A stretch of 40,088 nt of DNA. It comes from Candidatus Eiseniibacteriota bacterium (GTDB lineage Bacteria; Eisenbacteria; RBG-16-71-46). This document shows positions 2,360 to 31,665 of the stretch, in pieces. The DNA lies in NCBI GenBank assembly GCA_044222365.1, contig JBGANH010000002.1, positions 1 to 40,088 on the forward strand. Direction: 5' to 3'. The first letter of the stretch is position 1. Every line of letters begins with the position of its first letter. Position numbers and translations under genes: made by a program. Under the pieces are notes generated by a model that worked only from the letters and a program-made list of their open reading frames with translations, made no database searches and was not told the DNA's origin.

Positions 2360-2403
2360 TATAGCCGGGGCGCGTTGGGGCGTCAGCAGGACGGAGGTGC
2401 GAA

Positions 2404-5400
2404 GTGAAGCACGTGTGGCAGCGTTTCCTCTCGTGGGCCGGGCCAGTGGCCGTGGCTCTCGCGTTGACGCTGGCGGCGCTCCGCGGTGAGCCGCTGCAGG
2501 CCGCGAGCGGATCGGGCGTCGAGAACCCGCACGGCACCTTCAAGCAGGAGTGCGAGCTCTGCCATTCGTCGGCGGACTGGCGCACGCTGCGCCTGAGCGC
2601 GCGTTTCGATCACGCCCGCTACGGCTTCCCGCTCGAGGCCGCGCACGCGTCGGCCGCGTGCACGTCCTGCCACCAGTCGCTCGATTTCACGCGCGCGCAG
2701 ACCGTGTGCGCCTCGTGCCACACCGATCCGCACCGCGGTGAGATGGGCACCGAGTGCGCCCGCTGCCACGGCGCCCGCAGCTTCACCGACCGCGCGCCGA
2801 TGATCCGCGCGCACGAGATGACGAAGTTCCCGCTCAACGGCTCGCACGCGGTCGTCGAGTGCGAGAGCTGCCACAAGCCCGCGGCGCAGGGACAGATGCA
2901 GTTCGTCGGCACGCCGGTCGAGTGCCGGTCGTGCCACGAGAAGGACTACCGCGCGACCCGCAATCCCGACCACGCCGCGCAGGGCTTCCCGATGGACTGC
3001 CGCGGCTGCCACACCGCGCAGGTGTGGACGACCGCGACGTTCGACCACTCGCGCACGGCGTTCCCGTTGACGGGCGCGCACGTGACGCAGGAGTGCGCTT
3101 CGTGCCACAACGGCGGCAACTTCGCCGCCGCCGATCCGGCGTGCTCGTCCTGCCACACGTCGCAGTACCAGAACGCGACGCCCGACCACGCGGCCGCCGG
3201 CTTCCCGGCGAGCCAGTGCGCGACGTGCCACAACACGTCCACGTTCGCGGGCGGCGCGTTCGATCACGGCGCCACTCGCTTCGCGCTGACCGGCGCGCAC
3301 GCGGCGACGGCGTGCCTGAGCTGCCACGCCGACGGCGTCTATCACGGCAAGCCGCTCGACTGCGCCTCGTGTCACGAACTGCAGTACAGCTCGGCGACGC
3401 CGTCGCACTCCGGCGCGGGCTTCTCCGCCTCCCAGTGCGCGACGTGCCACACGACCGTGACCTGGTCGGGCGGCCGCTTCGATCACGGCACGACGGCGTT
3501 CGCGCTGACGGGCGCGCACCAGAGCTCGACGTGCAATTCCTGCCACTCCGACAACGTCTTCAACGGCAAGCCGGCGCAGTGCGAGACGTGTCACTCCGCC
3601 GACTACGCGAACGCGACGCCGAACCACCCGGCGTCGGGTTTCCCGGCGAGTCTGTGCACGACGTGCCACAACACGGTCACGTTCGCGGGCGCGACGTTCA
3701 ACCACTCCAACACGAGCTTCGCGCTCACCGGCGCGCACCAGGCCGTGAGCTGCAACTCGTGTCACTCGGACGGCGTCTTCGACGGCAAGCCGACCAATTG
3801 CTACTCGTGCCACCAGTCCGACTATTCCGGCGCCGTCGTGAACCACGCGGCCGCGGGCTTCCAGTCGAGCGCGTGCACGACCTGCCACAACACGACCACC
3901 TGGACGAGCGCCACGTTCAATCACACGACCGGCACGAGCTTCCCGCTCACCGGATCGCACGTCGCGCGCGCCTGCAACGACTGCCACTCGGACAACGTCT
4001 TCAACAACAAGCCGACGAACTGCTACTCGTGCCACGCGGCCGACTACGCCGGCGCGACGCCGAACCATCCGGCGGCCGGATTCTCGACGGCGTCGTGCGC
4101 GAACTGCCACAACACGACGACCTTCGCGGGCGCGGTGTTCAACCACAACACGAACACGAGCTTCCCGCTGACCGGCGCGCACCAGGCGGCGGCCTGCACG
4201 AGCTGTCACTCCGACGGTGTGTACAACGGCAAGCCCACGGACTGCGCCTCGTGCCACATGGCCGATTACAACGGCGCGACGCCGAACCACACCACGTCGG
4301 GCTTCCCGGCGAGCACGTGCGCGAACTGCCATTCGACCACGACGTGGTCGGGCGCGACGTTCAATCACAGCACGAACACGAGCTTCCCGCTCACGGGCGC
4401 GCACCAGACGACCTCGTGCAACTCGTGCCACGGCGACGGCGTCTACGACGGCAAGCCGACGGCGTGCCAGTCGTGCCACTCGAGCGACTACTCGGGTGCG
4501 TCGCTCAACCACACGGCCGCCGGGTTCGCGGCGAGCGCGTGCGCGACGTGTCACACGACCACCGCGTGGACGGGCGCGACGTACAACCACTCGGCGACGA
4601 GCTTCCCGCTCACGGGATCGCACGTGGCGGCGGCCTGCAACAGCTGCCACTCGAACGGCGTGTTCAACAACCACGCGATGGACTGCGCCTCGTGCCACAT
4701 GGCGGACTACAACGCCGCGACGCCGAGCCACGCCACGTCCGGGTTCCCGGCGGCGACGTGCGCGAACTGCCACAACACGACGACGTTCACGGGCGCCACG
4801 TTCAACCACAGCACGAACACGAGCTTCCCGCTCACCGGCGCGCACCAGTCGGTGACGTGCAACTCGTGCCACTCGGACGGGGTGTACGACGGCAAACCGA
4901 CCGCCTGCCAGTCATGCCACTCGAGCGACTACTCGGGCGCGTCGCTCAACCACACGGCCGCCGGCTTCGCGGCGAGCGCGTGCGCGACGTGTCACACGAC
5001 CACCGCGTGGACGGGCGCGACGTACAACCATTCGCTCACGAGCTTCCCGCTGACGGGCGCGCACACCACGGCGACGTGCAACGGCTGCCATTCGAACGGC
5101 GTGTTCAACAACCACGCGATGGACTGCGCGTCCTGCCACATGGACGACTACAACACGGCCGTGCCGAACCACGTGACGTCGGGCTTCGCGGCGTCGTCCT
5201 GCGCGACGTGCCACACGACCACCACCTGGTCGGGCGCGACGTTCAACCACACCACGAACACGACCTTCCCGCTCACCGGCGCGCACCAGGCCGTGAGCTG
5301 CAACTCGTGCCACGGTGACGGCGTGTACGACGGCAAGTCCACGGCGTGCTACTCGTGTCACCAGAGCGACTACACCGCGGCGGTACCCACGCACACCGCG

Positions 5401-5910
5401 ACGTCGTTCCCGACGTCCGCGTGCGGCTCGTGCCACACGACCACGGCCTGGGCGGGCGCGACGTTCAATCACGCCACGACGAGCTTCCCGCTCACGGGTG
5501 CGCACGTGACCACGACGTGCAACAGCTGCCACTCGGACGGCGTGTACGACGGCAAGCCGACGGCCTGCCTGTCGTGCCACCAGACGGACTGGAACTCGAC
5601 CGCGCCGAGCCACGCGGGTGCCGGGTTCAACGCCTCGCAGTGCTCCACGTGCCACACCACCTCGACGTGGGCGGGCGGCAAGTTCACCGCGCACGACGCC
5701 TCGCACTTCCGGATCTACTCCGGCAAGCACAACGGCCGGTGGTCGAACGACTGCACGTCCTGCCACACCAGCACGGCGTCGTACGGGACGTTCACGTGCA
5801 TCGCCTGCCACGAGCACAGCAACAAGACCGAGGTGGACGGGCACCACAGCGGAAACCGCAGCTACACCTACACGCCGACGTCCTGCTTCGGCTGTCACGC
5901 CCGCGTGTAG
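2404..5910 (+). CDS. secreted giant multiheme cytochrome c (46 CXXCH sites; polymer of triheme c7/c3-like modules)
   Basis: GTG start 6 nt after GGAGG (2393-2397). N-terminal signal peptide MKHVWQRFLSWAGPVAVALALTLAALRG. 46 CXXCH motifs by manual count in 1168 aa. A terminator hairpin follows the stop. Confidence 0.93.
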   Translation: MKHVWQRFLSWAGPVAVALALTLAALRGEPLQAASGSGVENPHGTFKQECELCHSSADWRTLRLSARFDHARYGFPLEAAHASAACTSCHQSLDFTRAQTVCASCHTDPHRGEMGTECARCHGARSFTDRAPMIRAHEMTKFPLNGSHAVVECESCHKPAAQGQMQFVGTPVECRSCHEKDYRATRNPDHAAQGFPMDCRGCHTAQVWTTATFDHSRTAFPLTGAHVTQECASCHNGGNFAAADPACSSCHTSQYQNATPDHAAAGFPASQCATCHNTSTFAGGAFDHGATRFALTGAHAATACLSCHADGVYHGKPLDCASCHELQYSSATPSHSGAGFSASQCATCHTTVTWSGGRFDHGTTAFALTGAHQSSTCNSCHSDNVFNGKPAQCETCHSADYANATPNHPASGFPASLCTTCHNTVTFAGATFNHSNTSFALTGAHQAVSCNSCHSDGVFDGKPTNCYSCHQSDYSGAVVNHAAAGFQSSACTTCHNTTTWTSATFNHTTGTSFPLTGSHVARACNDCHSDNVFNNKPTNCYSCHAADYAGATPNHPAAGFSTASCANCHNTTTFAGAVFNHNTNTSFPLTGAHQAAACTSCHSDGVYNGKPTDCASCHMADYNGATPNHTTSGFPASTCANCHSTTTWSGATFNHSTNTSFPLTGAHQTTSCNSCHGDGVYDGKPTACQSCHSSDYSGASLNHTAAGFAASACATCHTTTAWTGATYNHSATSFPLTGSHVAAACNSCHSNGVFNNHAMDCASCHMADYNAATPSHATSGFPAATCANCHNTTTFTGATFNHSTNTSFPLTGAHQSVTCNSCHSDGVYDGKPTACQSCHSSDYSGASLNHTAAGFAASACATCHTTTAWTGATYNHSLTSFPLTGAHTTATCNGCHSNGVFNNHAMDCASCHMDDYNTAVPNHVTSGFAASSCATCHTTTTWSGATFNHTTNTTFPLTGAHQAVSCNSCHGDGVYDGKSTACYSCHQSDYTAAVPTHTATSFPTSACGSCHTTTAWAGATFNHATTSFPLTGAHVTTTCNSCHSDGVYDGKPTACLSCHQTDWNSTAPSHAGAGFNASQCSTCHTTSTWAGGKFTAHDASHFRIYSGKHNGRWSNDCTSCHTSTASYGTFTCIACHEHSNKTEVDGHHSGNRSYTYTPTSCFGCHARV
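3040..5682 (+). repeat. coding array of 12 tandem 73-74-aa triheme modules
   Basis: Module consensus F[ND]H..(T)SF(P/A)LTGAH....C..CH.DGV(Y/F).GKP..C.SCH..DY....P.H...GF....C..CH.T..(W/F).G(A/G). Each module has 3 CXXCH plus 3 additional conserved His. Confidence 0.85.
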
Positions 5911-5931
5911 CCCAAAACAGCGCGCAACTCG

Positions 5932-5975
5932 AAGGGGCGGTCCCGCATCTTTCCATGCGGGATCGCCCTTTCTCG
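5932..5975 (+). terminator. Rho-independent-type terminator after the cytochrome gene
   Basis: GGGCGGTCCCGCAT (5935-5948) pairs with ATGCGGGATCGCCC (5955-5968): 14 bp with one G-U, loop CTTTCC. A T-rich tract TTTCTCGTCT follows. Confidence 0.7.
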
Positions 5976-6056: not shown

Positions 6057-7559
6057 ATGTCCCGTCCCCGCACGCTCGGTGAACTGAAGGCTTCCGGCTG
6101 GCGCTCGCGCTCCGTCAAGGACGAGCTGCGCGCCAACGTGATCGCGCGCCTGCGTTCCGGTGAGCCGTTGTTTCCCGGCATCGTCGGCTACGAGAGCACG
6201 GTCGAGCCGCAGATCGTGAACGCGCTGCTGTCCAAGCACGACTTCATCCTGCTCGGGCTGCGCGGCCAGGCGAAGACCCGCCTGCTGCGCTCGCTCGCGC
6301 AGTTCCTCGACGAATGGGTGCCCGCGATCGACGGCTGCCCGCTGAACAGCGATCCGTACGAGCCGCTCACGCACCACGCGCGGCAGGCGGTCGAGGTGCA
6401 CGGCGACGCGACGCCGATCCGCTGGCTGCACCGTGACGCGCGCTACCAGGAGAAGCTCGCGACGCCGGACGTGACGATCGCCGACCTGATCGGCGACATC
6501 GATCCGATCAAGGCGGCGACGCTGCGGCTCGACTACTCCGACGAGCGTGTCATCCACTACGGCATCCTGCCGCGCACGAATCGCGGCATCTTCGCGATCA
6601 ACGAACTGCCCGACCTGCAGCCGCGCATCCAGGTCGGCCTGCTGAACATCCTCGAGGAAAAGGATTTCCAGATCCGCGGTTTCCCCGTGCGCATTCCGCT
6701 CGACGTGGCCGTCGTGTTCTCCGCGAATCCCGAGGACTACACGAACCGCGGCAACATCATCACGCCGCTGCGCGACCGCATCAATTCGCAGATCATCACG
6801 CACTACCCGCTCACGCGGGAACAGGGCATGGCGATCACGTCGCAGGAGGCGTGGGCGGAGCGCGACTCCGGCATCGAGGTCGTGCTGCCCGCGTTCATGC
6901 GCGAGCTGATCGAGGAAGTCGCGATCCAGGCGCGCAAGAGCGAATACGTGGACCAGAACTCCGGCGTCTCGGCGCGACTGCCGATCGCGCTGCTCGAGAA
7001 CCTCGTGAGCAACGCGGAGCGCCGCGGACTGCGCACGGGTGAGAAGCGGGTCGTGACCCGTGTGTGCGACCTGCAGAACGCGGTGAGTGCCGTGAGCGGC
7101 AAGGTCGAACTCGTGCTCGAGGGCGAGCAGGAGGGTGCGCTCGCGGTGGCGAAGGCCCTGCTCGGCCGCGGTGTGAAGGCCGTCTTCCAGCAGCGCTTCC
7201 CCGACGCGTTCAAGGCGCGCGGCCGCAAACGCGGCCAGCCGCAGACGGAGAACGAGCCGCAGGCGGCGAGCGAGTATCGCCCGATCCTCGAGTGGTTCGC
7301 GGGCGGCCAACACCTGCGGATCGGCGACGACATGCCGGCGGTGGCGTTCGAAGGCGAACTGTCGCGTGTGGCGGGACTCGCCGACCTCGCGAAGAAGTAC
7401 CTCGAGCCGCGCGACCTCGCCGAGCACGCCGTGGCCATGGAACTCGTGCTCGAGGGCATGCACCAGAACTCGATGCTGTCGCGCGAGCGCACCGACGCGG
7501 CGGTGACGGAATACAAGGACATGCTCAAGTCCATGCTGTCCGGATTCGGTGACGACTGA
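6057..7559 (+). CDS. BchI/ChlI-like AAA+ ATPase (family often annotated Mg-chelatase-like or sigma-54-interaction-domain protein)
   Basis: ATG 6057 preceded by GGAGAA. Walker A-like GLRGQAKT, Walker B-like IFAINELPDL, sensor-1 region VVFSANPED and Arg-finger-like ITPLRDRI. The 5' part of the tracked ORF (5346-6056) overlaps the cytochrome gene and terminator and is not coding. Confidence 0.85.
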   Translation: MSRPRTLGELKASGWRSRSVKDELRANVIARLRSGEPLFPGIVGYESTVEPQIVNALLSKHDFILLGLRGQAKTRLLRSLAQFLDEWVPAIDGCPLNSDPYEPLTHHARQAVEVHGDATPIRWLHRDARYQEKLATPDVTIADLIGDIDPIKAATLRLDYSDERVIHYGILPRTNRGIFAINELPDLQPRIQVGLLNILEEKDFQIRGFPVRIPLDVAVVFSANPEDYTNRGNIITPLRDRINSQIITHYPLTREQGMAITSQEAWAERDSGIEVVLPAFMRELIEEVAIQARKSEYVDQNSGVSARLPIALLENLVSNAERRGLRTGEKRVVTRVCDLQNAVSAVSGKVELVLEGEQEGALAVAKALLGRGVKAVFQQRFPDAFKARGRKRGQPQTENEPQAASEYRPILEWFAGGQHLRIGDDMPAVAFEGELSRVAGLADLAKKYLEPRDLAEHAVAMELVLEGMHQNSMLSRERTDAAVTEYKDMLKSMLSGFGDD

Positions 7560-8211
7560 GGCGCCGGTGACCGCCACGGAAGATCCCCGCGACATCGTCC
7601 GGCGCGGCTACGAGCTCGCGTCGCACGCCTATCGGGGCGACACGTTCGCGCTCGAGGGCTCGCGCTACGAGTACTGGCTCGGCCGCTTCGCGCGCCGGCT
7701 GGCCGGCGGCGCGCGCGTGCTCGACCTCGGCTGCGGAAACGGCCTGCCGGTCGCGCTCGAGCTGTCGCGGCGATTCGACGTGACGGGCGTGGACCTGTCG
7801 CCCGTGCAGATCGAGCGCGCCCGGGCGCTCGTGCCCGGTGCACGCTTCGCGTGCGCGGACATGACCAGCGCCGAGTTCGCGCCGGGCTCCTTCGACGGCG
7901 TCGCGGCGTTCTACTCGATCATCAACGTGCCGCTCGACGAGCAGCCCGCCCTGATCGCGCGCATCGCCGGATGGCTCGCGCCCGGCGGCTGGCTGATCGC
8001 GACGGTGGGGCAGGAGCCCTGGACCGGCGTCGAAACCGACTGGCGCGGCGTGCGCGGCGCGAGCATGTACTACAGCCACGGCGCGGCGGAGCACTACCGC
8101 GCGTGGTTCGCGGAGGCCGGCCTCGAGCTCGTCGAGCAGGGCCGCGAGCCGCGCACCGGCAATCCCGGCTACGCGATGCTGCTCGCGCGACGCGCCGGGG
8201 CGGAGGGCTGA
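7549..8211 (+). CDS. class I SAM-dependent methyltransferase
   Basis: Motif I VLDLGCGNG, motif II-like FACADM, post-I DVTGVDLS. GTG start overlaps the end of the AAA+ gene by 11 nt (alternative GTG at 7567). Confidence 0.85.
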   Translation: MTTEAPVTATEDPRDIVRRGYELASHAYRGDTFALEGSRYEYWLGRFARRLAGGARVLDLGCGNGLPVALELSRRFDVTGVDLSPVQIERARALVPGARFACADMTSAEFAPGSFDGVAAFYSIINVPLDEQPALIARIAGWLAPGGWLIATVGQEPWTGVETDWRGVRGASMYYSHGAAEHYRAWFAEAGLELVEQGREPRTGNPGYAMLLARRAGAEG

Positions 8212-8215
8212 CGCC

Positions 8216-9307
8216 GTGCACTTCGACTACACGCGCTGGCAGGGTCCGAATCCGGGTGACATGGAGCGGATGCGCCAGCTCATGGACATCTACCGCAACC
8301 TGCTCCTGCAGACGGGTGGCGACGTGGAAGAGGCGCTGAAGTGGATGGAGCACTTCGGCCGCGAGTACGGGTTCTTCGACGAGAAGTTCGGGCTCTCCGA
8401 CTTCCGCAAGCTGCTCGAGGAGTCCGGTGAGGCGGAACGCACACCGCAGGGCTTCCAGATCACGCCCAAGGGCGAGCGCCGGATCCGGCAGGACTCGCTC
8501 AACGAGATGTTCTCGTCGCTGCGCGCCGGCGGTCCCGGCGATCACCGCACGCCCGTCGCGGGCAAGGGCGGCGAACGCCTGTCGGAGACGCGCGCATGGC
8601 AGTTCGGCGACGACCTCGGGAATCTCGACGCGCTCGGTTCGGTGAGCAACGCGGTCAAGCGTCAGGGCGTGGACGACCTCACGCTCGGCGAGGACGATCT
8701 CGAGGTCTTCGAGCAGGAGCAGACGTCGGCGTGCGCGACGGTGCTCATGGTGGACGTGAGCCACTCCATGATCCTGTACGGCGAGGACCGCATCACCCCG
8801 GCCAAGCGCATCGCGCTCGCGCTCACGCAGCTCGTGCAGACGCGCTACCCGAAGGACACCCTCGACGTCGTGCTGTTCGGCGACGACGCGAAGCAGGTGC
8901 GGCTCGCGGACCTCATGGGCATCCAGGCCGGTCCGTACCACACGAACACGCGGGCCGGGCTGCAGATGGCGCGGCGCATCCTCGCCTCGCGCAAGGGCGT
9001 CAACAAGCAGATCTTCATGATCACGGACGGCAAGCCGAGCTGCATGCACGAGTTCGGCCGGCTCTACAAGAATCCCTTCGGGCTCGACCCGAAGATCGTC
9101 AACAAGACGCTGGAAGAAGCCGTCTACTGCCGGCGTAAGAGAATCACGATCACGACGTTCATGCTCGCCGCGGACACCGTGCTGCTCGAGTTCGTGCGCA
9201 AGCTGACCGAGCTGAACCACGGAAGGCTGTACGAGACCGATCCGCAGAACATCGGCGCGTACGTGTTCCGCGACTTCGTCCGCAACCGCCGCAAGAAGCT
9301 GCATTGA
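8216..9307 (+). CDS. von Willebrand factor A (vWA) domain protein, partner of the AAA+ ATPase
   Basis: MIDAS-like VLMVDVSHSM, later ITDGKPS. GTG start 4 nt after the methyltransferase stop, with GGAGG upstream. Confidence 0.85.
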   Translation: MHFDYTRWQGPNPGDMERMRQLMDIYRNLLLQTGGDVEEALKWMEHFGREYGFFDEKFGLSDFRKLLEESGEAERTPQGFQITPKGERRIRQDSLNEMFSSLRAGGPGDHRTPVAGKGGERLSETRAWQFGDDLGNLDALGSVSNAVKRQGVDDLTLGEDDLEVFEQEQTSACATVLMVDVSHSMILYGEDRITPAKRIALALTQLVQTRYPKDTLDVVLFGDDAKQVRLADLMGIQAGPYHTNTRAGLQMARRILASRKGVNKQIFMITDGKPSCMHEFGRLYKNPFGLDPKIVNKTLEEAVYCRRKRITITTFMLAADTVLLEFVRKLTELNHGRLYETDPQNIGAYVFRDFVRNRRKKLH

Positions 9308-12724: not shown

Positions 12725-14203
12725 TCATCGCGCGACGGCCGGCTTTCCGGCGCCGCCCTTCATCCCCACGTAGATCGCGCCGGCCGCGAAGAAGCCGACG
12801 AACCACGCGTAGTCATAGAGTGGCCGCATTGGCGGAAATACGAGACCGCCCCACGCGAGCGCGCAGCCCGCGATCGTCGCGACCACGGCGGGAATGCTCC
12901 AGCCGCCGTACTCGCCGTCCGGCAGGTAGAGATCGCCGAGGTTCAACTCCTTCTTCCGCACGATCCAGTAGTCCGCGATCAGCACGCCCGCGATCGAGCC
13001 GAGGCCGCCGGAATAGCCGACCAGCCATGTGAAGATGTAGCCGGTCGGGTCGGCGAGCAGCTTCCAGGGCTGCATCGCGATGCCGAGCAGGCCGGTGATG
13101 AGCCCGCCGGTCTTGAACGAGATGTACTTGGGCAGCGCGTTCGCGAAGTCGTTGGCCGGGGACACCACGTTGGCGGCGATGTTCACCGCGAGCGTCGCGA
13201 TCACGACCGAGAACATGGCGAAGCCGACGATCCATGGGTTCGTGAAGTGGCCGACGAGCTTCACCGGATCCCAGATCGGCTCGCCGTAGAGGATCGCGCT
13301 CGCGCTCGTGATGAGCACGCCCATCGCGGCGAACGCGAACATGGTCGTGGGGAGCGCGACCGTCTGGCCGACCACCTGTTCCTTCTGGCTGCGGCCGAAG
13401 CGCGTGAAGTCCGGCATGTTCAGCGACAGCGTCGCCCAGAAGCCGATCATGCCGGTGAGCGACGGAATGAAGACCGGCATGAACTCCGCCATCGTCGTGA
13501 ACTTGCCGGGCTGCGAGAGCAGCGGGCCGAAGCCGTTCGCGGCCTTCACGGCCCACACGAGCAGGATCGCGGTCACGACGAGCACGTAGGGCGCCGACAG
13601 GTTCTCGACGATCCGCAGCAGGTTCATGCCCTTGTAGATGATGCCGATGTTGATGCCCCAGAAGATCAGGAAGCTGAGCCACTCCGTGCCGGTGTGGCCC
13701 GCGAAGCCGGGGCCGAGCAGCTGAGCCCAGTTCGGGATCAGCACGGCGAAGAACGTCTGCAGCGCCTCGCCACCGATCCACGCCTGGATGCCGAACCAGC
13801 CGCACGCGACGAGCGCGCGCATGAGCGCCGGGAGGTTCGAGCCCGCGGTGCCGTACGCGGCGCGGGCGAACACGGGGAAGGGAATGCCGTACTTCGTGCC
13901 CGGGTGCGAGTTCAGCAGGATCGGGGCGAGCACGATCGTGTTGCCGAGGAGGATCGTGAAGAGCGCCTGCCACCAGTTCATGCCCTGCGTCATGAGGCCG
14001 GACGCGAGCATGTACGTGGGAATGCAGTGCGCCATGCTGATCCAGAGCGCGGCGAAGTTGTACGTGGTCCAGTCGCGCTTCGCGACCGCGACGGGGGCGA
14101 GGTCCTCGTTGAAGAGCGGACTCGTGTGCAGCGCGGCGGCGTCCTGCAGTTCCACGCGGCCGTCGGCATGGCGGATCACGTCCAGCGGGCGATGTGCGGC
14201 CAT
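12725..14203 (-). CDS. NCS1 family nucleobase/hydantoin:cation symporter
   Basis: ATG 14203 with GGAGG upstream. Polytopic membrane protein with an NCS1-like N-terminus NEDLAPVAVAKRDWTTYNFAALWISM. Confidence 0.87.
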   Translation of the reverse strand: MAAHRPLDVIRHADGRVELQDAAALHTSPLFNEDLAPVAVAKRDWTTYNFAALWISMAHCIPTYMLASGLMTQGMNWWQALFTILLGNTIVLAPILLNSHPGTKYGIPFPVFARAAYGTAGSNLPALMRALVACGWFGIQAWIGGEALQTFFAVLIPNWAQLLGPGFAGHTGTEWLSFLIFWGINIGIIYKGMNLLRIVENLSAPYVLVVTAILLVWAVKAANGFGPLLSQPGKFTTMAEFMPVFIPSLTGMIGFWATLSLNMPDFTRFGRSQKEQVVGQTVALPTTMFAFAAMGVLITSASAILYGEPIWDPVKLVGHFTNPWIVGFAMFSVVIATLAVNIAANVVSPANDFANALPKYISFKTGGLITGLLGIAMQPWKLLADPTGYIFTWLVGYSGGLGSIAGVLIADYWIVRKKELNLGDLYLPDGEYGGWSIPAVVATIAGCALAWGGLVFPPMRPLYDYAWFVGFFAAGAIYVGMKGGAGKPAVAR

Positions 14204-14355
14204 CGGGGTTCCTCCCGGTTCGGCGCTCCATGGGGGCGGCGCGCAACATTCCGCACGCCCCATCCGTCAAAAGGTGGCGCGCAGGTTAGCATGCGGTCCG
14301 CGCGATGCTGCCGAAAATCCCACGCGCCTCAACGGCCATTCCCGGAGGTTCCCGC

Positions 14356-15363
14356 TTGAAGCTCGTTCCGTCCGTCCTGTTCGCCTGCGCGTTGCTCACG
14401 ATCGCCGGGCGCGCGTCCGCTTTCGATTCCGCCGCCGCCACCGCCAAGGGCAAGGCCATGCTCGCGCACGCCACGGCCAACGAGGCCGCTCCCCTGTGGG
14501 CGGAGTTCGACGGCGGCATGCGTGCCGCGATGAAGGACTCGGCCAACTTCGCCGCCACGCTCGAGCGCATCGGCGGCAGCCTCGGCAAGCTCGACTCCGT
14601 GGTGAGCGAGACGACGTCGGAGCCGGCGCCCGGCAACTGGGCCTACGTCGCGACGTGCCGCTTCTCGAAGGTGCCCGCGCCCATCGACATGACTTTCGCG
14701 TTCGATCGCGACGGCCGCGTGACCGGCATGCTCGCCCGGCCCTCCGCGAAACCCACCGAGTTCGCGAGCGCGCACCTCGGCTACGAGACGAAGACGACGC
14801 TGCGCCTGCCGTTCGAGGGCGAGTGGTTCGTGGTGTGGGGTGGGCGCACGGTGGACCAGAACTATCACGCGGCCACGCGCGACCAGCGCTTCGCGATGGA
14901 CGTGCTGATCGTGAAGAACGGCTCGACGCACAGGGGCGACGGCAAGGCGCTCGCGGACTACTGGTGCTACGGGAAGAAGGCGCTCGCGCCGGCCGCGGGC
15001 ACGATCGTGTGGATGCGCGACACCCTGCCCGACAACCTGCCGGGCAAGACCGACCGCGCGAATGCGATCGGCAACGGCGTCGTGATCGATCATGGCAACG
15101 GTGAGTACTCGCTGCTCGCGCACCTGCAGCCGAAGTCGCTGCGCGTGAAGACCGGCGACCGCGTGAAGAGCGGGCAGATGCTCGGGCTCGTCGGCAACTC
15201 CGGCAACACGAGCGAGCCGCACATTCACTACCACCTGCAGAACGGCCCGAAGCCGTTCGACGCCGACGGCCTGCCGATCCCGTTCACGAACCTCGTCGTG
15301 AACGGCGTCGCGACCGCGAAGGCGGAGGTGGTGAAGGGACAGGCGGTGGCGCCGGGGCGCTAG
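14356..15363 (+). CDS. secreted M23 family metallopeptidase
   Basis: TTG 14356 lies 7 nt after GGAGG (14344-14348) and gives signal peptide (M)KLVPSVLFACALLTIAGRASA. ATG 14305 is an alternative start. M23 motifs VVIDHGNGEYSLLAHL and GNSGNTSEPHIHYHL. Confidence 0.85.
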   Translation: MKLVPSVLFACALLTIAGRASAFDSAAATAKGKAMLAHATANEAAPLWAEFDGGMRAAMKDSANFAATLERIGGSLGKLDSVVSETTSEPAPGNWAYVATCRFSKVPAPIDMTFAFDRDGRVTGMLARPSAKPTEFASAHLGYETKTTLRLPFEGEWFVVWGGRTVDQNYHAATRDQRFAMDVLIVKNGSTHRGDGKALADYWCYGKKALAPAAGTIVWMRDTLPDNLPGKTDRANAIGNGVVIDHGNGEYSLLAHLQPKSLRVKTGDRVKSGQMLGLVGNSGNTSEPHIHYHLQNGPKPFDADGLPIPFTNLVVNGVATAKAEVVKGQAVAPGR

Positions 15364-18300
15364 GGCTTCACTCCGAGCGCGCGCGCCCGCGCGAGCAGCC
15401 CGCGCTCACGTTCGAGCAGCGCCGCAAGCGCGCGTTCGGCTTCGGGCGCGGCGGCCGCGAGCGCCGCGGTCGGCGCGTCGTCCGCGCGCTGGATCTGGTC
15501 GAGCGCGCGGCTGCAGTCGGTGGCGAGCGCGGCGCAGTCTCGCCCGCCGCCGCCGCGCGCCCACCACGGACCGCCGCCTCGGCCTTCGAGCGCGGCGAGG
15601 TCGCGCCGCAGCGAATCGCTCGCGGCGTCCGTGCCGGTGACGCGGGAGCGCAGCGCGCGCATGCGCGTGGCGAGCCGGGCGTCGGCCCGCCAGATCGCGA
15701 GCAGCTTCGCCGACAGCGAGTACTGCTCGTCGAGGTCCGCCATCGTGGCGGGAGAGCGCGGGTCCATTCGCACGTGGAGCAGCTGCTCGTACACGTGCCC
15801 GTCAACGGTGAGATGCAGGTGGTACACACCCGGAGTCACCCAGGCGCCCCGCGGCTCGACGGGCGTGTCGTGCTCGATCGCCGCCATGCCCCAGCCGCGA
15901 TCGTCGGTCGGCGGCGGGTCCGTGCGCAGGTTCCACACGAAGCGATGCGCGCCCGCCTTCGCGCTCAGCGCCTGCTCGTTCCGCATCCAGTACCACGGCG
16001 TCTGGTCTTCGGTCCTCACTGCGCGCACGGAGTCCGTGGTCGACCAGCTGCACACGGTCCCGGTATCGCCGTCGATCACCTCGAGCGTCACCGGGCCCTT
16101 CGCGTCGCGCGCGAGCACGTAGTCGATCACCGCGCCGTCGGGCGGGTTCTGCCCCGCGGGCTCGTCGGGAGGAATCGGCGTGTCGGTGTTGCGATTCCAG
16201 CGCACGCGCGTGGCCAGCGCGGGCTTGCAAAGGTGGGCCTGCCCTGACGCGCGCGCGGTTGCAATCGCCGCCGCCTGCCGCAGTGGCGTCACGTCGTCGA
16301 GGATCCAGAACGAGCGGCCGTGCGTGCCGATCACGAGATCGGCGTCCTTCACGACCAGGTCGCGCACGCTCGTCGTGGGCAGGTTGTACCGCAGCGACTG
16401 CCAATGGTCGCCGGCGTCGAACGACATGAACACGCCGCGCTCGGTCGCCGCGTAGAGCAGCGACGGCGTCGTCGGGTCCTCGCGCACGGCGTTCACCACC
16501 ACGTCGGGCGGCAGGCCATTCACGATCTGCTCCCAGGTGCGGCCGCCATCGCGCGTGCGCCAGACGTGCGGCGCATAGTCGTCGAGCCGGAAGCGATTGA
16601 TCGCCGCGTACGCGACGTTCGAGTCCGCGTACGACGCCTCGAGCATGGACACCTTGCTCCACGGCGTGAGCGCGGGCGGGGTGACGTTCGTCCACGTGCG
16701 GCCGTGGTCGTGCGTGACGTGCACGAGCCCGTCGTCGGTGCCCGCCCAGATGAGCGCCGCCGAGCGCGGCGAACCCGCGATCGTATAGACGACGCCGCGA
16801 TGCTTGCCCTTCTCGCCGTCGAGCGCGGCGAACGCGCCCATCGAGGGCGGCGTGTCGTACGACTCGCGCGTCAGGTCGGGGCTGATCGTGGTCCAGTGCT
16901 CGCCGTCGTCGAAGGACGAGAACACGACGTTCGCGCCGAGCAGCAGCTCGTGCGCCTGCGCCGGATGCCACGTCACCGGCATCGTGCGCACCCAGCGCAA
17001 CGGCTGGCGGCGCAGCGGATCGGGCGAGACGTTCTTCACGTCGCCGGTGCGGCGGTCGTAGCGCGTGATCTTGCCGCCGAAGATGAAGTGGGCGTGCACC
17101 GGGTCCGGCGCGACGTAGCCGTATTCCTCGACGCCGACCGGGTGCCATTCGCGCAACGTGATCGCGCCGTCGCGGCCGCGGCTGGCGACACCGGCCGAGC
17201 CACTCTCCTGCTGGCCGCCGTAGACGTGGTAGGGCCAGTCGAAGTCGGTCGCGACGTGGAAGAACTGCGCGGTCGGCTGGTTGTACCAGGAGCTCCAGCT
17301 CTCGCCGCCGTTCACCGTGATCACGGCCCCCTGGTCGCCGGCGAGCAGGATCACGCGCGGGTCGTGCGGGTCGATCCAGAAGCGGTGGTAGTCGTCGCCG
17401 CCGGGCGCACCGCGGAACGCCTCGAACGTGCGGCCACCGTCGGTGGACTTCCACGCGACCACGTTGCCGACGTACACGACGTCGGCGTTCGTGGGGTCGG
17501 CCTTCACTTCGTCGAAGTCGCCGTTGCGCTCGCACAGCCGCGGGTCGGCGTTGACGAGCCGGAAGTGTTCGCCCGAGTCGTCGCTGCGGTACAGGCCGCC
17601 GCCCTTCGAGCCGGACGTGATCGCGTACAGGCGCTTCGGGTCGCTCGGGCACGTGCCGATGCCGATGCGCCCGAGCCCTTCGTCGCCCGTCGGCAGGCCC
17701 GCGCCGATGCGGCGCCACGTCGTGCCGCCGTCCTCCGACTTCCAGAGCCCGTTCTTCGCGCTGAGTGACCAGCCGTTTTCCCACGGCGCCTGCCGCGCGG
17801 CCCACAGCACGGCGTACAAGACGCGCGGGTTCGCCGGGTCGAGCGCCACGTCCATCGCACCCGTGTCGTCGTCGGTGTGCAGCACGCGCTCCCACGTGCG
17901 GCCGCCGTCGGTGGTGCGGAACACGCCGCGCTCGGCGTTGGGTCCGTACGGGTGGCCGAGCGCCGCGACGAACACGCGGTTCGGATCCACCGGGTCCACC
18001 GCGATCGCCGGGATCTGCCGCGCGTCCTTCAGTCCGAGATGCCGCCACGTCGCGCCCGCATCGTCGGAGCGGTACATGCCATCGCCCACCGACAGGTCGG
18101 GACGCTGCAGTCCTTCGCCGCTGCCGACGTAGATCGTCGCGGGGTTCGACGGCGCCACCGCGATCGCGCCGATGGACTGCGTCGGCTGCTCGTCGAAGAT
18201 CGGACGCCACGTGCGGCCGTAGTCCGTCGTGCGCCAGACGCCGCCGTTGTTCACGCCGACGTAGAAGAGCCCGCGGGTCTGCGGCACGCCGACCGCGGCC

Positions 18301-18452
18301 ACCGTGCGGCCGCCCCGGTGCGGGCCGATGCAGCGCCAGCGCAGCTCGGAAAACAGCGAAGCATCCTGCGCGAACGCCATGGCGGCGAGCGCGAGCGAGG
18401 CGAACAGCGTGGCGGAAGCGAGAGCGAGCACAGCGCGGAAGCGGGGCGTCAT
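15360..18452 (-). CDS. BNR/Asp-box repeat, sortilin/VPS10-like beta-propeller protein (secreted)
   Basis: Signal peptide, then repeated S.D.G.TW Asp-box motifs (TTDYGRTW, SDDAGATW, TTDGGRTW, SEDGGTTW, STDGGRTF, THDHGRTW, TRDGGRTW). 1030 aa. Confidence 0.85.
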   Translation of the reverse strand: MTPRFRAVLALASATLFASLALAAMAFAQDASLFSELRWRCIGPHRGGRTVAAVGVPQTRGLFYVGVNNGGVWRTTDYGRTWRPIFDEQPTQSIGAIAVAPSNPATIYVGSGEGLQRPDLSVGDGMYRSDDAGATWRHLGLKDARQIPAIAVDPVDPNRVFVAALGHPYGPNAERGVFRTTDGGRTWERVLHTDDDTGAMDVALDPANPRVLYAVLWAARQAPWENGWSLSAKNGLWKSEDGGTTWRRIGAGLPTGDEGLGRIGIGTCPSDPKRLYAITSGSKGGGLYRSDDSGEHFRLVNADPRLCERNGDFDEVKADPTNADVVYVGNVVAWKSTDGGRTFEAFRGAPGGDDYHRFWIDPHDPRVILLAGDQGAVITVNGGESWSSWYNQPTAQFFHVATDFDWPYHVYGGQQESGSAGVASRGRDGAITLREWHPVGVEEYGYVAPDPVHAHFIFGGKITRYDRRTGDVKNVSPDPLRRQPLRWVRTMPVTWHPAQAHELLLGANVVFSSFDDGEHWTTISPDLTRESYDTPPSMGAFAALDGEKGKHRGVVYTIAGSPRSAALIWAGTDDGLVHVTHDHGRTWTNVTPPALTPWSKVSMLEASYADSNVAYAAINRFRLDDYAPHVWRTRDGGRTWEQIVNGLPPDVVVNAVREDPTTPSLLYAATERGVFMSFDAGDHWQSLRYNLPTTSVRDLVVKDADLVIGTHGRSFWILDDVTPLRQAAAIATARASGQAHLCKPALATRVRWNRNTDTPIPPDEPAGQNPPDGAVIDYVLARDAKGPVTLEVIDGDTGTVCSWSTTDSVRAVRTEDQTPWYWMRNEQALSAKAGAHRFVWNLRTDPPPTDDRGWGMAAIEHDTPVEPRGAWVTPGVYHLHLTVDGHVYEQLLHVRMDPRSPATMADLDEQYSLSAKLLAIWRADARLATRMRALRSRVTGTDAASDSLRRDLAALEGRGGGPWWARGGGGRDCAALATDCSRALDQIQRADDAPTAALAAAAPEAERALAALLERERGLLARARALGVKP

Positions 18453-18574
18453 GCGGCGGTCCTCCGTTCGACGGGCAGGTGACGGTCGGCCGCATGCTAA
18501 CCGCGTCGCCCGAGTTGTCCTACTCTGTCCCGCGTCCGGTGCCGCACACCGTCCCTCGTCTGGGAGACTCGCGC

Positions 18575-19638
<1,064 letters not shown>

Positions 19639-21912: not shown

Positions 21913-23247
21913 TCAGCCCCGCAGACCGCCCGGGACCTTGTTCGTCCCCTTGGCGATGCGGTCGTTCCAGCTCTCGAACGGCTTGCCGCGCGTGTCGTCC
22001 ACCATCGTGATGCAGCCGGGCACGGGGCAGACGTGCGAGCACAGGTTGCAGCCCGTGCACTCGTCCCAGTCCACCCACGGCACGTGCACGCCGGTGGCGT
22101 TCGCCTTCGCGATCGCCCGCTCGCGCGTCGGCGCGCGATGGCCTTCGTGCAGCGGCTCGCCCGCGGTGTGGATGCAGTGCACCGACGTGTCGCGGCACGC
22201 CACGTAGCACAGGTCGCAGCCGATGCACTTCTCGGGGTCGATCTGGGCGGCGACCTTGTAGTTGAGGTCGAGATCGCCCCACTCGCTGTACGCGCCGAGC
22301 GCCTTGCCGCGGAGTTCGTTCACCGACTTCATGCCCTTCTCGTCGAGGAAGTTCGACAGGCCGTCGATCATGTCCTCCACGATCCGGAAGCCGTAGTGCA
22401 TGGCGGCGGTGCACACCTGCGTCGTCGTGCAGCCCATCGCGATGAACTCCGCCGCGTCACGCCACGTCGCGATGCCGCCGATGCCCGAGATCGGCACCGT
22501 GATGCGCGGGTCGCGTCCGAGCGCGCTCACCATGTGCAGCGCGATCGGCTTCACCGCCGGTCCGCAGTAGCCGCCGTTGGTCGAGCGGTTGCCGACGACG
22601 GGGTAGGGCACCATCTTGTCGAGGTCCACGCCGACGATGCTCTTGATGGTGTTGATCAGCGACAGCCCGTGCGCGCCGGCTTCGACGGCCGCGGCGCCGG
22701 GCACGGTGATGTCGCCGACGTTCGGCGTGAGCTTCACGAGCACCGGCACGGTCGAGTACTGCACCGCCCAGCCGGCGACGACCTTGAGCACTTCGGGCTC
22801 CTGGCCGACCGCCGAGCCCATGCCGCGCTCGCACATGCCGTGCGGGCAGCCGAAGTTCAGTTCGAGGCCATCGGCGCCGGCGTCGATCACCATCTTGATG
22901 ATGTCGCGCCAGTCTTCCTGCGACTCGACCATCAGCGACGCGATGACCGCGTGCTTCGGGTACTTGCGCTTCACCTCGCGCATTTCGCGCAGGTTCACTT
23001 CGAGCGGCCGGTCGGTGATCAGCTCGATGTTGTTGAAGCCGACCATGCGCGAGTTGCCGACGTCGATCGAACCGAAGCGGCTCGACGTGTCCACGATCGG
23101 GTCGCCGAGCGTCTTCCACACCGCGCCGCCCCAGCCGTGATCGAACGCGCGCATGATCTGGTCGCCGGAGTTGGTCGGCGGCGCGCTCGCGAGCCAGAAG
23201 GGGTTCGGCGACTGGATGCCGGCCATGTTGACGGAGAGGTCTGCCAT
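21913..23247 (-). CDS. preA: NAD-dependent dihydropyrimidine dehydrogenase subunit PreA
   Basis: DHOD-like TIM-barrel motifs (LELNFGCPHGM, GGYCGPAVKPIAL) plus two C-terminal 4Fe-4S motifs CIGCDLCYVAC and CTGCNLCSHVCP. Confidence 0.92.
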   Translation of the reverse strand: MADLSVNMAGIQSPNPFWLASAPPTNSGDQIMRAFDHGWGGAVWKTLGDPIVDTSSRFGSIDVGNSRMVGFNNIELITDRPLEVNLREMREVKRKYPKHAVIASLMVESQEDWRDIIKMVIDAGADGLELNFGCPHGMCERGMGSAVGQEPEVLKVVAGWAVQYSTVPVLVKLTPNVGDITVPGAAAVEAGAHGLSLINTIKSIVGVDLDKMVPYPVVGNRSTNGGYCGPAVKPIALHMVSALGRDPRITVPISGIGGIATWRDAAEFIAMGCTTTQVCTAAMHYGFRIVEDMIDGLSNFLDEKGMKSVNELRGKALGAYSEWGDLDLNYKVAAQIDPEKCIGCDLCYVACRDTSVHCIHTAGEPLHEGHRAPTRERAIAKANATGVHVPWVDWDECTGCNLCSHVCPVPGCITMVDDTRGKPFESWNDRIAKGTNKVPGGLRG

Positions 23248-23331
23248 GCGGGACTCACGATGTTGGCCGGCCGAAGCCGGCGGTGGTGAGGGCTCTCGGC
23301 CCCCGAAAGGTCGGAGTGGGTCGAAAGTCTT

Positions 23332-24639
23332 CTAACGATGTCCCGCCAGCATCGGCGAGTCCGGCCGCACGGTGACGCCGCAGGCCGAGGCGATGGCGCG
23401 CGCGGCGCGCTTGCCGTCCTGCGCCGCGGTCACGACGAGTTCGCCGCCGGTCACGTCGCCGCCGACGAACACCTTCGGGTTCCCGGTCGCGCCGCTCATC
23501 GGATCGGCGATCGCGAGGCCCTTGTCGTTCACCGCCACACCCGCGAACTGCGACACGACCGCGCCGAGCTTGCCCTGCCCGATCGCGACGACGGCCAAGT
23601 CGCACGCGACCTCGCGGCCGTCGGCCAGCGCGAGCGCCGCGAGCTTGCCGTCCTGCCGCACGAACTGCTTCGGCGTCGCCTTCTCGATCAGCCGCACGCC
23701 TTCCTTGCGGGCCAGCTCGAGCTCGTGCTTGTAGCCCGGCATGTCGGCTTCGGTGCGGCGGTAGACGAGCGCCACGTCGGGCACGCCCAGCTTGGCCAGT
23801 TCGCGCACCACGTCAAGTGCGGTGTTGCCACCGCCGATCACGATCGCGCGCTTCACGCCGTCGAGCGAGTACGACTCGTCGAGCTTCATCTTCTCGACCC
23901 ACTCGACGCCGCCCAGCACGTTCGCGCCGTCCTCGCCCGGGATGCCGAGCTTCGAATCCGCACCGAGGCCCACGCCGACGAACACCGCGTCATGGTCGGC
24001 CACGAGCTTCTCGGCCGTGATCGTCCTGCCGATCTCGACGCCGGTCTTGATCGTCACGCCGAGCGAGCGGATGAACTCGACCTCGGCATCGGCGCCCTCA
24101 CCGTTCATCTTGTAGGGCGCGACGCCGGTGCGGTTCAGGCCGCCGGCCAGGTCGCGCTTCTCGTAAAGCGTCACCTCGAAACCTTCGATCGCCAGGTAAC
24201 CCGCACACGCGAGCGACGCGGGACCGGCGCCGACGCACGCGACGCGCTTGCCGTTCTTCGGCGCCCGGCTCAGCAGCGCCGCCGCGTCACCCTTGGCGAA
24301 CGCGGTCTCGACCGCGTAGCGCTGCAGGCGGCCGATCTGGATCGGCGGGTTGCGGTGCCATTCGTTGTACACGCACGAGCCGACGCACAGCGCCTCGACC
24401 GGGCACACCCGCGCGCACGAGTAGCCGAGCAGGTTGGCCGACAGAATGGTGCGGGCGGAGCCCTTCACGTTGCCGGTCGCGATCTTGCGGATGAACGTCG
24501 GGATGTCGATGCCGGTCGGGCAAGCCGTGATGCACGGCGCGTCGTGGCAGTAGAGGCAGCGGTTCGCCTCCGCCACGGCGTCGCCCGGAATGTAGTTCGG
24601 CTTCGAGTCGGCGATGCGGCTTTCGAGGGCCTGCTTCAA
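23332..24639 (-). CDS. preT: NAD-dependent dihydropyrimidine dehydrogenase subunit PreT
   Basis: TTG start overlaps the dihydropyrimidinase stop (TTGA). N-terminal Fe-S motif CLYCHDAPCITACP, dinucleotide fold VACVGAGPASLACAG, second fold VIGGGNTALD. Confidence 0.88.
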   Translation of the reverse strand: MKQALESRIADSKPNYIPGDAVAEANRCLYCHDAPCITACPTGIDIPTFIRKIATGNVKGSARTILSANLLGYSCARVCPVEALCVGSCVYNEWHRNPPIQIGRLQRYAVETAFAKGDAAALLSRAPKNGKRVACVGAGPASLACAGYLAIEGFEVTLYEKRDLAGGLNRTGVAPYKMNGEGADAEVEFIRSLGVTIKTGVEIGRTITAEKLVADHDAVFVGVGLGADSKLGIPGEDGANVLGGVEWVEKMKLDESYSLDGVKRAIVIGGGNTALDVVRELAKLGVPDVALVYRRTEADMPGYKHELELARKEGVRLIEKATPKQFVRQDGKLAALALADGREVACDLAVVAIGQGKLGAVVSQFAGVAVNDKGLAIADPMSGATGNPKVFVGGDVTGGELVVTAAQDGKRAARAIASACGVTVRPDSPMLAGHR

Positions 24640-26042: not shown

Positions 26043-26540
26043 GGCCTTCCTCCGGAAAGGAAGCCGCGGTGCGGCCGGGGCAGTGGGCGCCGGTCCGCCG
26101 GGTCGCGACTTCGAAAATGGCTCGATGCCGGCCAAGTCGGGGCTCGCGGGACCCGTGTCTCCCGGCAGTTGGGTTTCGACTGCCGTGTGCGCAGCGCAGG
26201 AGCGCATCGCATCGCACGCGCGCGGAACGCGCACGGGCGCGGGAGAGTCTACACCGGGCGGGGCCGAATCCGAGTGGCCGAATTGCGGTGGCGGGTCTTC
26301 CCCCGTTCGCCGTCGCCGCCGGGCTGCGGAAACGCTTCGGCCGACCCGGGCGAATCCCGTGCGCGCGGCCGCCCGCGGTCACCCGGGACCGACCGGCGGG
26401 CGGGGCGGAATGCTCGCTCCGGGGGGGCGCCTGCGAGTTCGTCCTGTCGCCACCCGGCCGAGACGCGCCCGCGTTCGCCGCGTGGAACGTCACGCACGGC
26501 TGCCGTGGTGCCGTCACGGAGCGGCTGCCGCGCACGACGA

Positions 26541-30854: not shown

Positions 30855-31164
30855 GCGCACGAGTTTCGCCGAGCCCCGCGACGCCCTGCAAGCGTCTCGC
30901 GAGTCGGCCGTGCAACGTGCACGTCAAGATCGGGCCGTCCCGGAACCGCCGCCCGAAAGCGGTGTATCGCTTCGCGCGTCCACGCACCTGTACCGCGAAA
31001 GGGGGGCCGACGGCGCGACTCCTGCTCGCGACTGTGCGAGATTGTCGATCGCGAACTCCGATGCCTCTCCACCAGCCTCCAGAGGCGGGCCCCACGCTCC
31101 GCGATCGGATCGCCGGTGACCACGTCGCTTCGTCCACGTTCCCATTCCCGAGGTGAACCTGCCC

Positions 31165-31665
31165 ATGCTTCGCCGCCTCATCGTGCGCACCCTCGCCGCG
31201 GCCGTGCTGGGGCTCGCGCTCGCCGCCGTTCCGCTCCACGCTGCCGCGCCGGAGCCAGCGCCGGCGCTCACGGTGCGCACCGCGCGCGGGGACGTTTCGC
31301 TGGAGTCGCTGAAGGGCAAGGTCGTCGTGCTCGACTTCTGGGCGTCGTGGTGCGCACCCTGTCATCAGTCCTTCCCCTGGCTCGACGCGCTCCAGAAGAA
31401 GTACGCCGACCAGGGCCTCGTCGTGCTGGCGGTCGACGTGGACAAGGACTCCGATCTGGCCGACCGCTTCGTGGCCCGGCATCCGGTGTCGTTCACGATC
31501 GGCTACGACCCCGCGGGCCGAGCCGCGAGTGCGATGAAGGTCTCGGGCATGCCCTCGACGTTCGTGATCGACCGCACCGGCACGGTGCGGATGCGCCACG
31601 TCGGATTCGACGCCAAGAAGACGAAGCCGCTCCAGAACGCCATCGAGGAGGCACTCCGCCCATGA
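31165..31665 (+). CDS. TlpA-family periplasmic thioredoxin-like disulfide reductase
   Basis: ATG 31165 after GAGGTGA. Signal peptide. Active site FWASWCAPC. The MPSTFVID strand is typical of TlpA/ResA proteins. Confidence 0.88.
   Translation: MLRRLIVRTLAAAVLGLALAAVPLHAAAPEPAPALTVRTARGDVSLESLKGKVVVLDFWASWCAPCHQSFPWLDALQKKYADQGLVVLAVDVDKDSDLADRFVARHPVSFTIGYDPAGRAASAMKVSGMPSTFVIDRTGTVRMRHVGFDAKKTKPLQNAIEEALRP

Follow-up and report, generated by a model that had tools for sequence, protein, structure and literature searches.

A predicted 46-heme cytochrome of Candidatus Eisenbacteria is of ordinary size within a large, uncharacterised family of triheme-module proteins

Introduction

Whether a cytochrome with 46 heme-binding motifs on one polypeptide is an extreme form of the heme-wire proteins known from Geobacter, and what such a protein would do in the cell, is the question raised by one gene in a 40,088-nucleotide stretch of a Candidatus Eiseniibacteriota genome (GenBank assembly GCA_044222365.1, contig JBGANH010000002.1, positions 1–40,088, forward strand; hereafter the window). 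A first-pass annotation, made from the letters of the sequence, had described the product as a very long polymer of c7-type triheme modules and had given 12 and 27 hemes as the sizes reached by characterised c7 polymers, a statement that agrees with the literature (PMC10138318). In the 12-heme GSU1996, the hemes are strung along a 12-nm wire at edge-to-edge distances of 3–5 Å, each domain contains one heme with His-Met ligation, and a role as a capacitor has been proposed (PMC10138318), while the 27-heme Geobacter protein has a predicted length of 35 nm, compared to a periplasm of 17 nm (PMC11492766).

Within a large and uncharacterised family, the window gene is of ordinary size and no outlier. 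Its product is predicted, with a probability of roughly 0.75, to be a Sec-exported soluble cytochrome of ~147 kDa (with hemes), in which 46 low-spin hemes with bis-histidine (bis-His) ligation would act as a heme wire and/or capacitor of the cell envelope.

A complete gene of tandem triheme modules

The open reading frame (ORF) at positions 2,404–5,910, from a GTG start to a TAG stop, is a real gene. The G+C content of third codon positions (GC3) is 0.95 in its frame, and the ratio of nonsynonymous to synonymous substitution rates (dN/dS) is 0.21 against a 93%-identical orthologue (locus L001), such that the gene is under purifying selection. The ribosome-binding site of the first-pass annotation was found where expected, with GGAGG placed 6 nt ahead of the GTG (Table 1). 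A monocistronic gene, as had been claimed, is plausible, given that the upstream gene (endonuclease/exonuclease/phosphatase family) is divergently oriented and the next downstream gene begins after 147 nt. The strong terminator claimed alongside it held in part: a stable hairpin follows the stop codon (−40.8 kcal/mol; z = −6.9 compared to 200 shuffles), but its U-tract is short and partly within the stem, and a simple terminator scan did not call it.

Counting by script returned 46 CXXCH motifs in the 1168 amino acids, identical to the earlier manual count, with 92 of the 92 cysteines falling within motifs; shuffling the same protein 5000 times yielded 0.6 ± 0.8 motifs by chance (maximum, 5). 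The variants CX3CH, CX4CH, and CXXCK were all absent from the protein. A zinc-ribbon or DnaJ-like cysteine-rich repeat was considered and rejected, as a histidine follows every CXXC and the match to DnaJ_CXXCXGXG was below threshold.

The spacing between motifs cycles through 32/33, 16, and 25 residues. The first-pass layout of 7 motifs, twelve modules of 3, and a final 3 was arithmetically right, but a better phase is the one matched by the Pfam c7 model, which starts at the CXXCH after each 25-residue gap and divides the protein into 15 triheme modules followed by a lone C-terminal heme. Within every module, the order is H-x9-CXXCH-x11-H(F[ND]H)-x10/11-H(TG[AS]H)-x4-CXXCH-x11-CXXCH; modules 3–14 are regular (73–74 amino acids), and modules 1, 2, and 15 are diverged but retain the motif order. 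Tandem Repeats Finder detected an array (positions 3,174–5,580) that repeats every 222 nt (10.9 copies) and also every 441 nt (5.5 copies). The longer period results from the alternation of two module types, within which DNA identity is high (72–86% among modules 9, 11, and 13; 89% between modules 10 and 12) compared to 54–59% between the types.

The mature protein contains the 46 motif histidines and 52 others, 46 of which occupy conserved positions (three per module and H1148) that are invariant across 30 homologues. Thus, the three additional histidines per module on which the first-pass annotation based its bis-His ligation are present, and such ligation is possible at every heme. None of the 11 methionines in the whole protein is conserved in the modules. 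By inspection, the N-terminus has the features of the Sec-type signal peptide that had been proposed, with charged residues (K2/R7), a hydrophobic core (residues 8–26), and an AXA-like site (LQA-A) near residue 33; the first cysteine is C50, and hydrophobic leaders also begin the homologues. The composition is rich in Thr, Ser, Asn, and Ala with few charged residues, the chain ends 3 residues beyond the last CXXCH, and the sequence shows neither a membrane anchor nor a lipobox, nor any C-terminal sorting domain. Collectively, these features support the prediction of a genuine Sec-type exported multiheme c-type cytochrome built of tandem triheme modules.

Remote relationship to the c7 cytochromes

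Comparison to the Pfam model Cytochrome_C7 (PF14522), a check that had been suggested with the first-pass annotation, gave 182 bits for the whole protein (1.7e-54) over 17 stretches. A single module scored 29.6 bits (gathering threshold, 24.8) across profile positions 13–67 of 67, near the 31.0 bits of PpcA. More specific models gave scores below their cut-offs, including TIGR04257, the curated NCBIfam model of Geobacter c7-type triheme cytochromes (24.7 bits; cut-off, 40), and the NCBIfam HmcA model NF045713 (44.3 bits; cut-off, 400).

Using a profile built from 95 aligned homologue di-modules, it was possible to find related proteins of solved structure. The best match among the Protein Data Bank (PDB) sequences was the 16-heme cytochrome 1Z1N (E = 8e-10). 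The GSU1996 structure 3OV0 was matched (E = 3.3e-6) in three collinear stretches of ~130 residues that correspond to two-domain units, and the bi-domain structures 3OUE (E = 0.0019) and 3OUQ (E = 0.0044) were collinear over ~130 residues. Only module profiles produced such matches; a phmmer search of the PDB sequences with the full-length protein had zero, and hhalign of the 15-module profile to PpcA was insignificant (15% probability over 12 columns). In the alignment to GSU1996, the histidine of TG[AS]H falls on the methionine-bearing segment, so that the His-Met heme of the GSU1996 type would be replaced by a predicted His-His heme. One His-Met heme per domain is therefore a trait that the window modules are predicted to lack.

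The resemblance to the Geobacter polymers (GSU1996 and GSU0592, 12 hemes in 4 domains; GSU2210, 27 hemes; structures 3OV0, 3OUE, and 3OUQ) extends to a single polypeptide of tandem ~70–80-residue triheme domains, the pairing of those domains, a signal peptide, and, for GSU1996, a proposed role as wire or capacitor (PMC10138318). Unlike these polymers, the window protein has 15 modules and 46 hemes compared to 4 to 9 domains, belongs to a family found in the Eisenbacteria and other phyla outside the Desulfuromonadia, and differs from GSU1996 in its conserved N- and C-terminal caps and in hemes that are all predicted to be bis-His. The modules share three CXXCH in ~70 residues, six histidines, and a PF14522 score of ~30 bits with PpcA–E and the Desulfuromonas c7, but the motif spacing (32/33 and 16, compared to 24 and 14 in PpcA) and the placement of the distal histidines (one ahead of the first CXXCH and two in the interval to the second, compared to two and one in PpcA) are distinct, and the modules are Thr/Ser/Ala-rich and Lys-poor where PpcA is Lys-rich. 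Class III high-molecular-weight cytochromes, such as the 16-heme HmcA (1Z1N) and nine-heme cytochrome c, have c3/c7-like repeats and the paired CXXCH-x11-CXXCH in common with the window protein; HmcA differs in that the window protein has a regular triheme periodicity and a 3n+1 architecture, and no Hmc/Qrc membrane-complex context surrounds its gene.

On these sequence comparisons, the window protein is placed outside the family of the Geobacter c7 polymers, as their remote relative and probable functional analogue. The c7-polymer description given earlier is retained in so far as PF14522 and 3OV0 are matched, but not as to membership, given the low TIGR04257 score, the lack of a conserved methionine, and the insignificant alignment to PpcA.

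A large family across phyla

A word-indexed homologue search returned >5443 matches, and heme statistics were calculated for the top 120. Among these, CXXCH counts range from 34 to 85 (median, 60) and are mostly 3n+1, lengths reach 2024 amino acids, and at least six phyla are represented; the 46-heme protein is therefore a mid-to-small family member. An exhaustive search with the C-terminal cap as query identified 809 representative clusters (50% identity, E ≤ 1e-3), a number that includes module carriers as well as cap carriers because the query also matched internal modules. The 125 apparently complete homologues carry 10 to 85 hemes, with 70% fitting 3n+1 and 84 possessing an NPHG-like N-terminal cap, and the C-terminal cap F-x-C-x-x-C-H ... 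G-Y-x-Y ... C-Y-x-C-H, conserved in the 30-sequence alignment, recurs among the inspected termini. Sources include the Eisenbacteria, Gemmatimonadota, Acidobacteriota, Ignavibacteria, Calditrichota, Bacteroidota, Planctomycetota, Lentisphaeria, and Nitrospinota.

The exceptional length implied by the first-pass annotation is contradicted by this distribution and by published counts of up to 112 motifs. An uncharacterised Desulfuromonadia cytochrome has 87 motifs (PMC11492766), and >100 motifs occur in the Saprospiraceae and 112 in a Paludibaculum metagenome-assembled genome (MAG), where the proteins were called 'undescribed' and no more than speculation on their function was offered (PMC11495043). 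For the giant cytochromes of sludge MAGs, secretion was predicted and a part in extracellular electron transfer put forward (PMC11495043), with extracellular electron transfer or a capacitor role being speculated for giant cytochromes in both studies (PMC11495043, PMC11492766), and heme number is known to vary between close relatives (PMC7399161). MAGs of Paludibaculum, Saprospiraceae, and Flavobacteriales encode direct homologues of the window protein that carry 68–85 CXXCH per ORF; the window protein is shorter than these giants and its gene is without their neighbouring genes. In the literature, no paper was found on the architecture of the family or on experiments with any member.

Several homologue loci (designated by L numbers) contain consecutive same-strand ORFs with CXXCH counts of 23+85 (L005:6531-14944), 23+85 (L012:5429-14515), and 26+38+17+70 (L008:574-15574). 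At each of these three loci, the hemes of one protein or of a gene set may exceed 100.

Predicted function and cellular location

As proposed here, a single chain, with 15 triheme modules in tandem and a C-terminal cap that carries one heme, would be exported by Sec, and its hemes, by analogy with the distant homologue GSU1996, would form one continuous chain that takes electrons from membrane or periplasmic donors and then holds them or passes them on over distance. By proportion from GSU1996 and the 27-heme protein (PMC10138318, PMC11492766), the extended chain would be ~45–60 nm long. Lacking a membrane anchor, lipobox, and C-terminal sorting domain, the protein would by default be located in the periplasm, as a relay or capacitor. 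The envelope heme wire or capacitor of the first-pass annotation is, on the motifs and the homology to GSU1996, still the most likely function, but the partner genes that might have accompanied it are missing from the window.

Structure prediction, which had been recommended as a check, succeeded for part of the protein. A di-module (residues 625–771; 147 amino acids and six hemes), modelled heme-free in AlphaFold2 from 95 aligned di-modules, had a predicted local distance difference test score (pLDDT) of 87.6 and a predicted template modelling score (pTM) of 0.66, and the confidence of this model suggests that modules pack in a defined way; the geometry of a heme chain is predicted by analogy only.

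A number of results weigh against a heme wire or capacitor of the envelope. The full-length AlphaFold2 model from the 30-sequence alignment was unusable (pLDDT, 44.5) and, for this reason, was not entered into a fold search. Foldseek with the heme-free di-module model found no PDB match at E ≤ 10, not even to c7 or GSU1996, in a search run without a positive control. This null result may reflect either a new fold or the weakness of such searches on loop-rich, heme-free models of cytochromes, and it is not taken as proof of a new fold. The 40-kb window has no second multiheme ORF, no obvious redox partner, and no large β-barrel porin, only ~220-residue OMP_b-brl proteins, and no Ccm/Ccs maturation genes were found in the window or in the ±10 kb Eisenbacteria loci. 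For the 46-heme protein, the analysis shows motif content, modular anatomy, conservation, purifying selection, agreement between assemblies, and remote homology to c7-type polymers, and it predicts heme occupancy, the continuous chain, location, and physiological partners. Lastly, no known sorting signal beyond the periplasm was seen, yet a straight rod of the expected length exceeds the periplasm. The adjacent large porin and partner cytochromes that define an Mtr/Pcc porin-cytochrome conduit were likewise not found within the window.

Two more specific proposals divide on location. In the first, the protein would be a strictly periplasmic capacitor or redox buffer, bent or lying along the membrane, that carries respiration through oxic-anoxic swings. 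This proposal falls somewhat short of even odds: a Sec signal without a further sorting signal, a stand-alone gene without a conduit partner in the window, and homology to a proposed capacitor (GSU1996; PMC10138318) are what it would predict, and the nearest relatives come from activated sludge and groundwater, but the role is hypothetical even in Geobacter, and other members of the family that carry 85 or more hemes would be very long relative to a periplasm.

In the second, the protein would mature in the periplasm and be secreted as an extracellular electron-transfer wire or terminal reductase, delivering electrons to minerals, humics, or partner cells. Such secretion is possible, though on the whole unlikely. 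The absence from the window of a porin-cytochrome partner or any β-barrel larger than the ~220-residue proteins, of secretion-system genes among the scanned ORFs, and of a C-terminal sorting domain in a chain that stops 3 residues after its last CXXCH has to be set against an expected length greater than the width of the periplasm (from PMC10138318 and PMC11492766), a surface rich in Thr, Ser, Asn, and Ala with few charges, and the predicted secretion of the related giants in sludge MAGs (PMC11495043).

That the protein is not a pure electron carrier but a multiheme enzyme, reducing for example nitrite, sulfite, hydroxylamine, or a metal, is very improbable. Weak, sub-threshold similarities to HmcA, DmsE, and MtrC family models speak for it, but the scores of all curated enzyme and complex models lie far under their cut-offs, neither CXXCK nor any other atypical motif is present, a non-heme catalytic domain is absent, and a conserved candidate sixth histidine for every heme leaves no obviously open coordination site.

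Module number and assembly

The window gene is collinear over all 3507 nt with two contigs, one from an ENA assembly (L001, k141_313155; 92.8% nucleotide identity) and one from a Candidatus Eisenbacteria MAG (L003, tig00008821; 89.7%), the latter from a MAG set that we take to be long-read-assembled. As no module pair within the window gene exceeds 89% DNA identity and these assemblies are collinear, collapse or expansion of the array is unlikely. Two other Eisenbacteria orthologues are ~447 nt shorter, the equivalent of two modules. One is an intact ORF (L004; 1019 amino acids, 13 modules, 40 CXXCH) that obeys 3n+1; the other, of the same 13-module length (L002, the same contig as L029), has C-terminal frameshifts. 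Tandem units of two modules (441 nt) are probably what is gained or lost as module number changes.

That the module count is an artefact of assembly is highly unlikely: though the array is repetitive (85–89% DNA identity for pairs 9/11 and 10/12) and related MAG copies have frameshifts and a two-module difference in length, the divergence of the modules, the two collinear contigs, the intact window frame with all 46 motifs, and the intact 13-module form of L004 all oppose it.

Frameshifts break several MAG copies of the gene (L002:12600-13260 on the L029 contig, L003:9983-13508, L010, and L020), and the deposited protein P0014 is truncated by frameshifts and ends in an out-of-frame Arg-rich tail, with its true C-terminal cap readable in other frames. 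As a consequence of such copies, public annotations undercount hemes.

Organism and genomic neighbourhood

All of the closest relatives belong to Candidatus Eisenbacteria (Eiseniibacteriota) MAGs, in line with the earlier remark that the lineage did not look like Geobacter. The window has a G+C content of 70%, and no exact copy of the cytochrome protein was found in the assembly collection. Gene order around the cytochrome is conserved in the Eisenbacteria MAGs, with genes for an ABC ATPase and the nuclease/phosphatase-family protein upstream and, downstream, an AAA_5 ATPase, a methyltransferase, a VWA protein, a small outer membrane protein (OMP) β-barrel, and a CZB protein. The AAA_5 (MoxR-like) ATPase, methyltransferase, and VWA genes follow the cytochrome in all Eisenbacteria loci (Table 1), and homologues of the ATPase and VWA protein (~40–45% identity) occur 6–9 kb from a giant cytochrome in an Acidobacteriota locus (L019); this proximity may reflect chance or a link to maturation.

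Elsewhere in the window, a thioredoxin-like Redoxin/AhpC-TSA protein is encoded beside a DUF3570 protein, and the only other in-frame, high-GC3 CXXCH of the window sits in this thioredoxin-like ORF. A cytosine/purine-family permease, a dihydroorotate-dehydrogenase-like protein fused to a 4Fe-4S dicluster domain, and an amidohydrolase may constitute a set for pyrimidine catabolism. A protein of ~1030–1080 amino acids has Sortilin-Vps10 and BNR/Asp-box repeats.

Table 1. Positions of the cytochrome gene, its parts, and neighbouring features in the window, and of partner genes at homologue loci.
Feature	Position	Strand	Basis
Complete cytochrome gene, 1168 codons + TAG, 46 CXXCH	2404..5910	+	GC3, dN/dS
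Shine-Dalgarno-like GGAGG, 6 nt before GTG	2393..2397	+	Read from sequence
Predicted Sec (SPI-type) signal peptide, residues 1–33, no lipobox Cys	2404..2502	+	Inspection
Diverged triheme modules 1–2, residues 36–184, starting with the family-wide NPHG cap	2509..2955	+	Motif order; 30.9 bits to PF14522
Twelve regular triheme modules 3–14, residues 185–1065, two alternating types	2956..5598	+	Tandem Repeats Finder, module alignment, identity matrix
Diverged module 15 and single C-terminal heme, residues 1066–1168, family-conserved cap	5599..5907	+	30-sequence alignment
18-bp GC-rich hairpin, likely terminator, weak U-tract, 21 nt past stop	5931..5972	+	Folding energy
AAA_5 (MoxR-like) ATPase, methyltransferase, VWA protein	6057..9307	+	
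Cytosine/purine-family permease	12725..14266	-	
Sortilin-Vps10 + BNR/Asp-box protein	15360..18599	-	
Dihydroorotate-dehydrogenase-like + 4Fe-4S dicluster fusion	21913..23331	-	
Amidohydrolase	24636..26378	-	
Thioredoxin-like Redoxin/AhpC-TSA protein and DUF3570 protein	31120..33178	+	
Partner and synthase genes of homologue loci	L005:17393-18316, L026:8610-9923, L014:14917-18024, equivalents in L006-L034		

Partner genes beside homologues in other phyla

In loci of the Bacteroidota, Acidobacteriota, Lentisphaeria, and Planctomycetota, two same-strand partner genes adjoin the giant cytochrome genes. The first encodes a ~300-residue membrane protein with weak cytochrome b561/ferric-reductase matches and two conserved pairs of histidines in transmembrane segments (H103/H117 and H283/H297), the members of each pair being 14 residues apart. 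The second encodes a ~440-residue protein with 2x[4Fe-4S] and a Pyr_redox flavin adenine dinucleotide (FAD)/NAD(P)H oxidoreductase domain. A ~1040-residue ResB-CcsA fusion, a cytochrome c synthase, is also nearby in the Bacteroidota loci. Together, the partner genes and ResB-CcsA may form a dedicated module for electron input and maturation. Searches by tblastn for the membrane b-type protein, the iron-sulfur (FeS) flavoprotein, and CcsBA had no match in the window or the Eisenbacteria loci. A Pyr_redox gene upstream of the cytochrome in L001 was considered as a counterpart of the flavoprotein and rejected as unrelated.

A broader proposal, which we hold tentatively and consider doubtful at present, is that these proteins make up a distinct, undescribed family in which a single chain forms a heme wire of adjustable length, each with an NPHG cap, n triheme modules that are all bis-His, and a one-heme C-terminal cap (3n+1, with n from ~3 to 28+), spread over the Eisenbacteria, Gemmatimonadota, Acidobacteriota, Bacteroidota, Ignavibacteria, Planctomycetota, and others. 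In many of these lineages, the neighbouring membrane protein, whose histidine pairs are those expected for two b hemes, and a membrane-anchored FeS-flavoprotein would then provide a quinone-independent route from NAD(P)H to the wire.

Implications

The window gene itself is of moderate value, as an ordinary-sized, stand-alone Candidatus Eisenbacteria member with no partners in view. Its six-heme di-module of 147 amino acids, for which the model is confident, could be expressed. The family offers a natural length series of ~10 to 85+ hemes built on one module type, so that the effect of length on conduction and charge storage can be tested directly, and long single-chain heme wires are candidate bioelectronic materials. 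Long heme wires also bear on how electrons are transferred and stored during respiration by uncultured bacteria of sludge, groundwater, and soil. If the broader proposal is true, the family would be part of a new electron-export pathway, in which electrons from cytoplasmic NAD(P)H cross the membrane into a heme wire.

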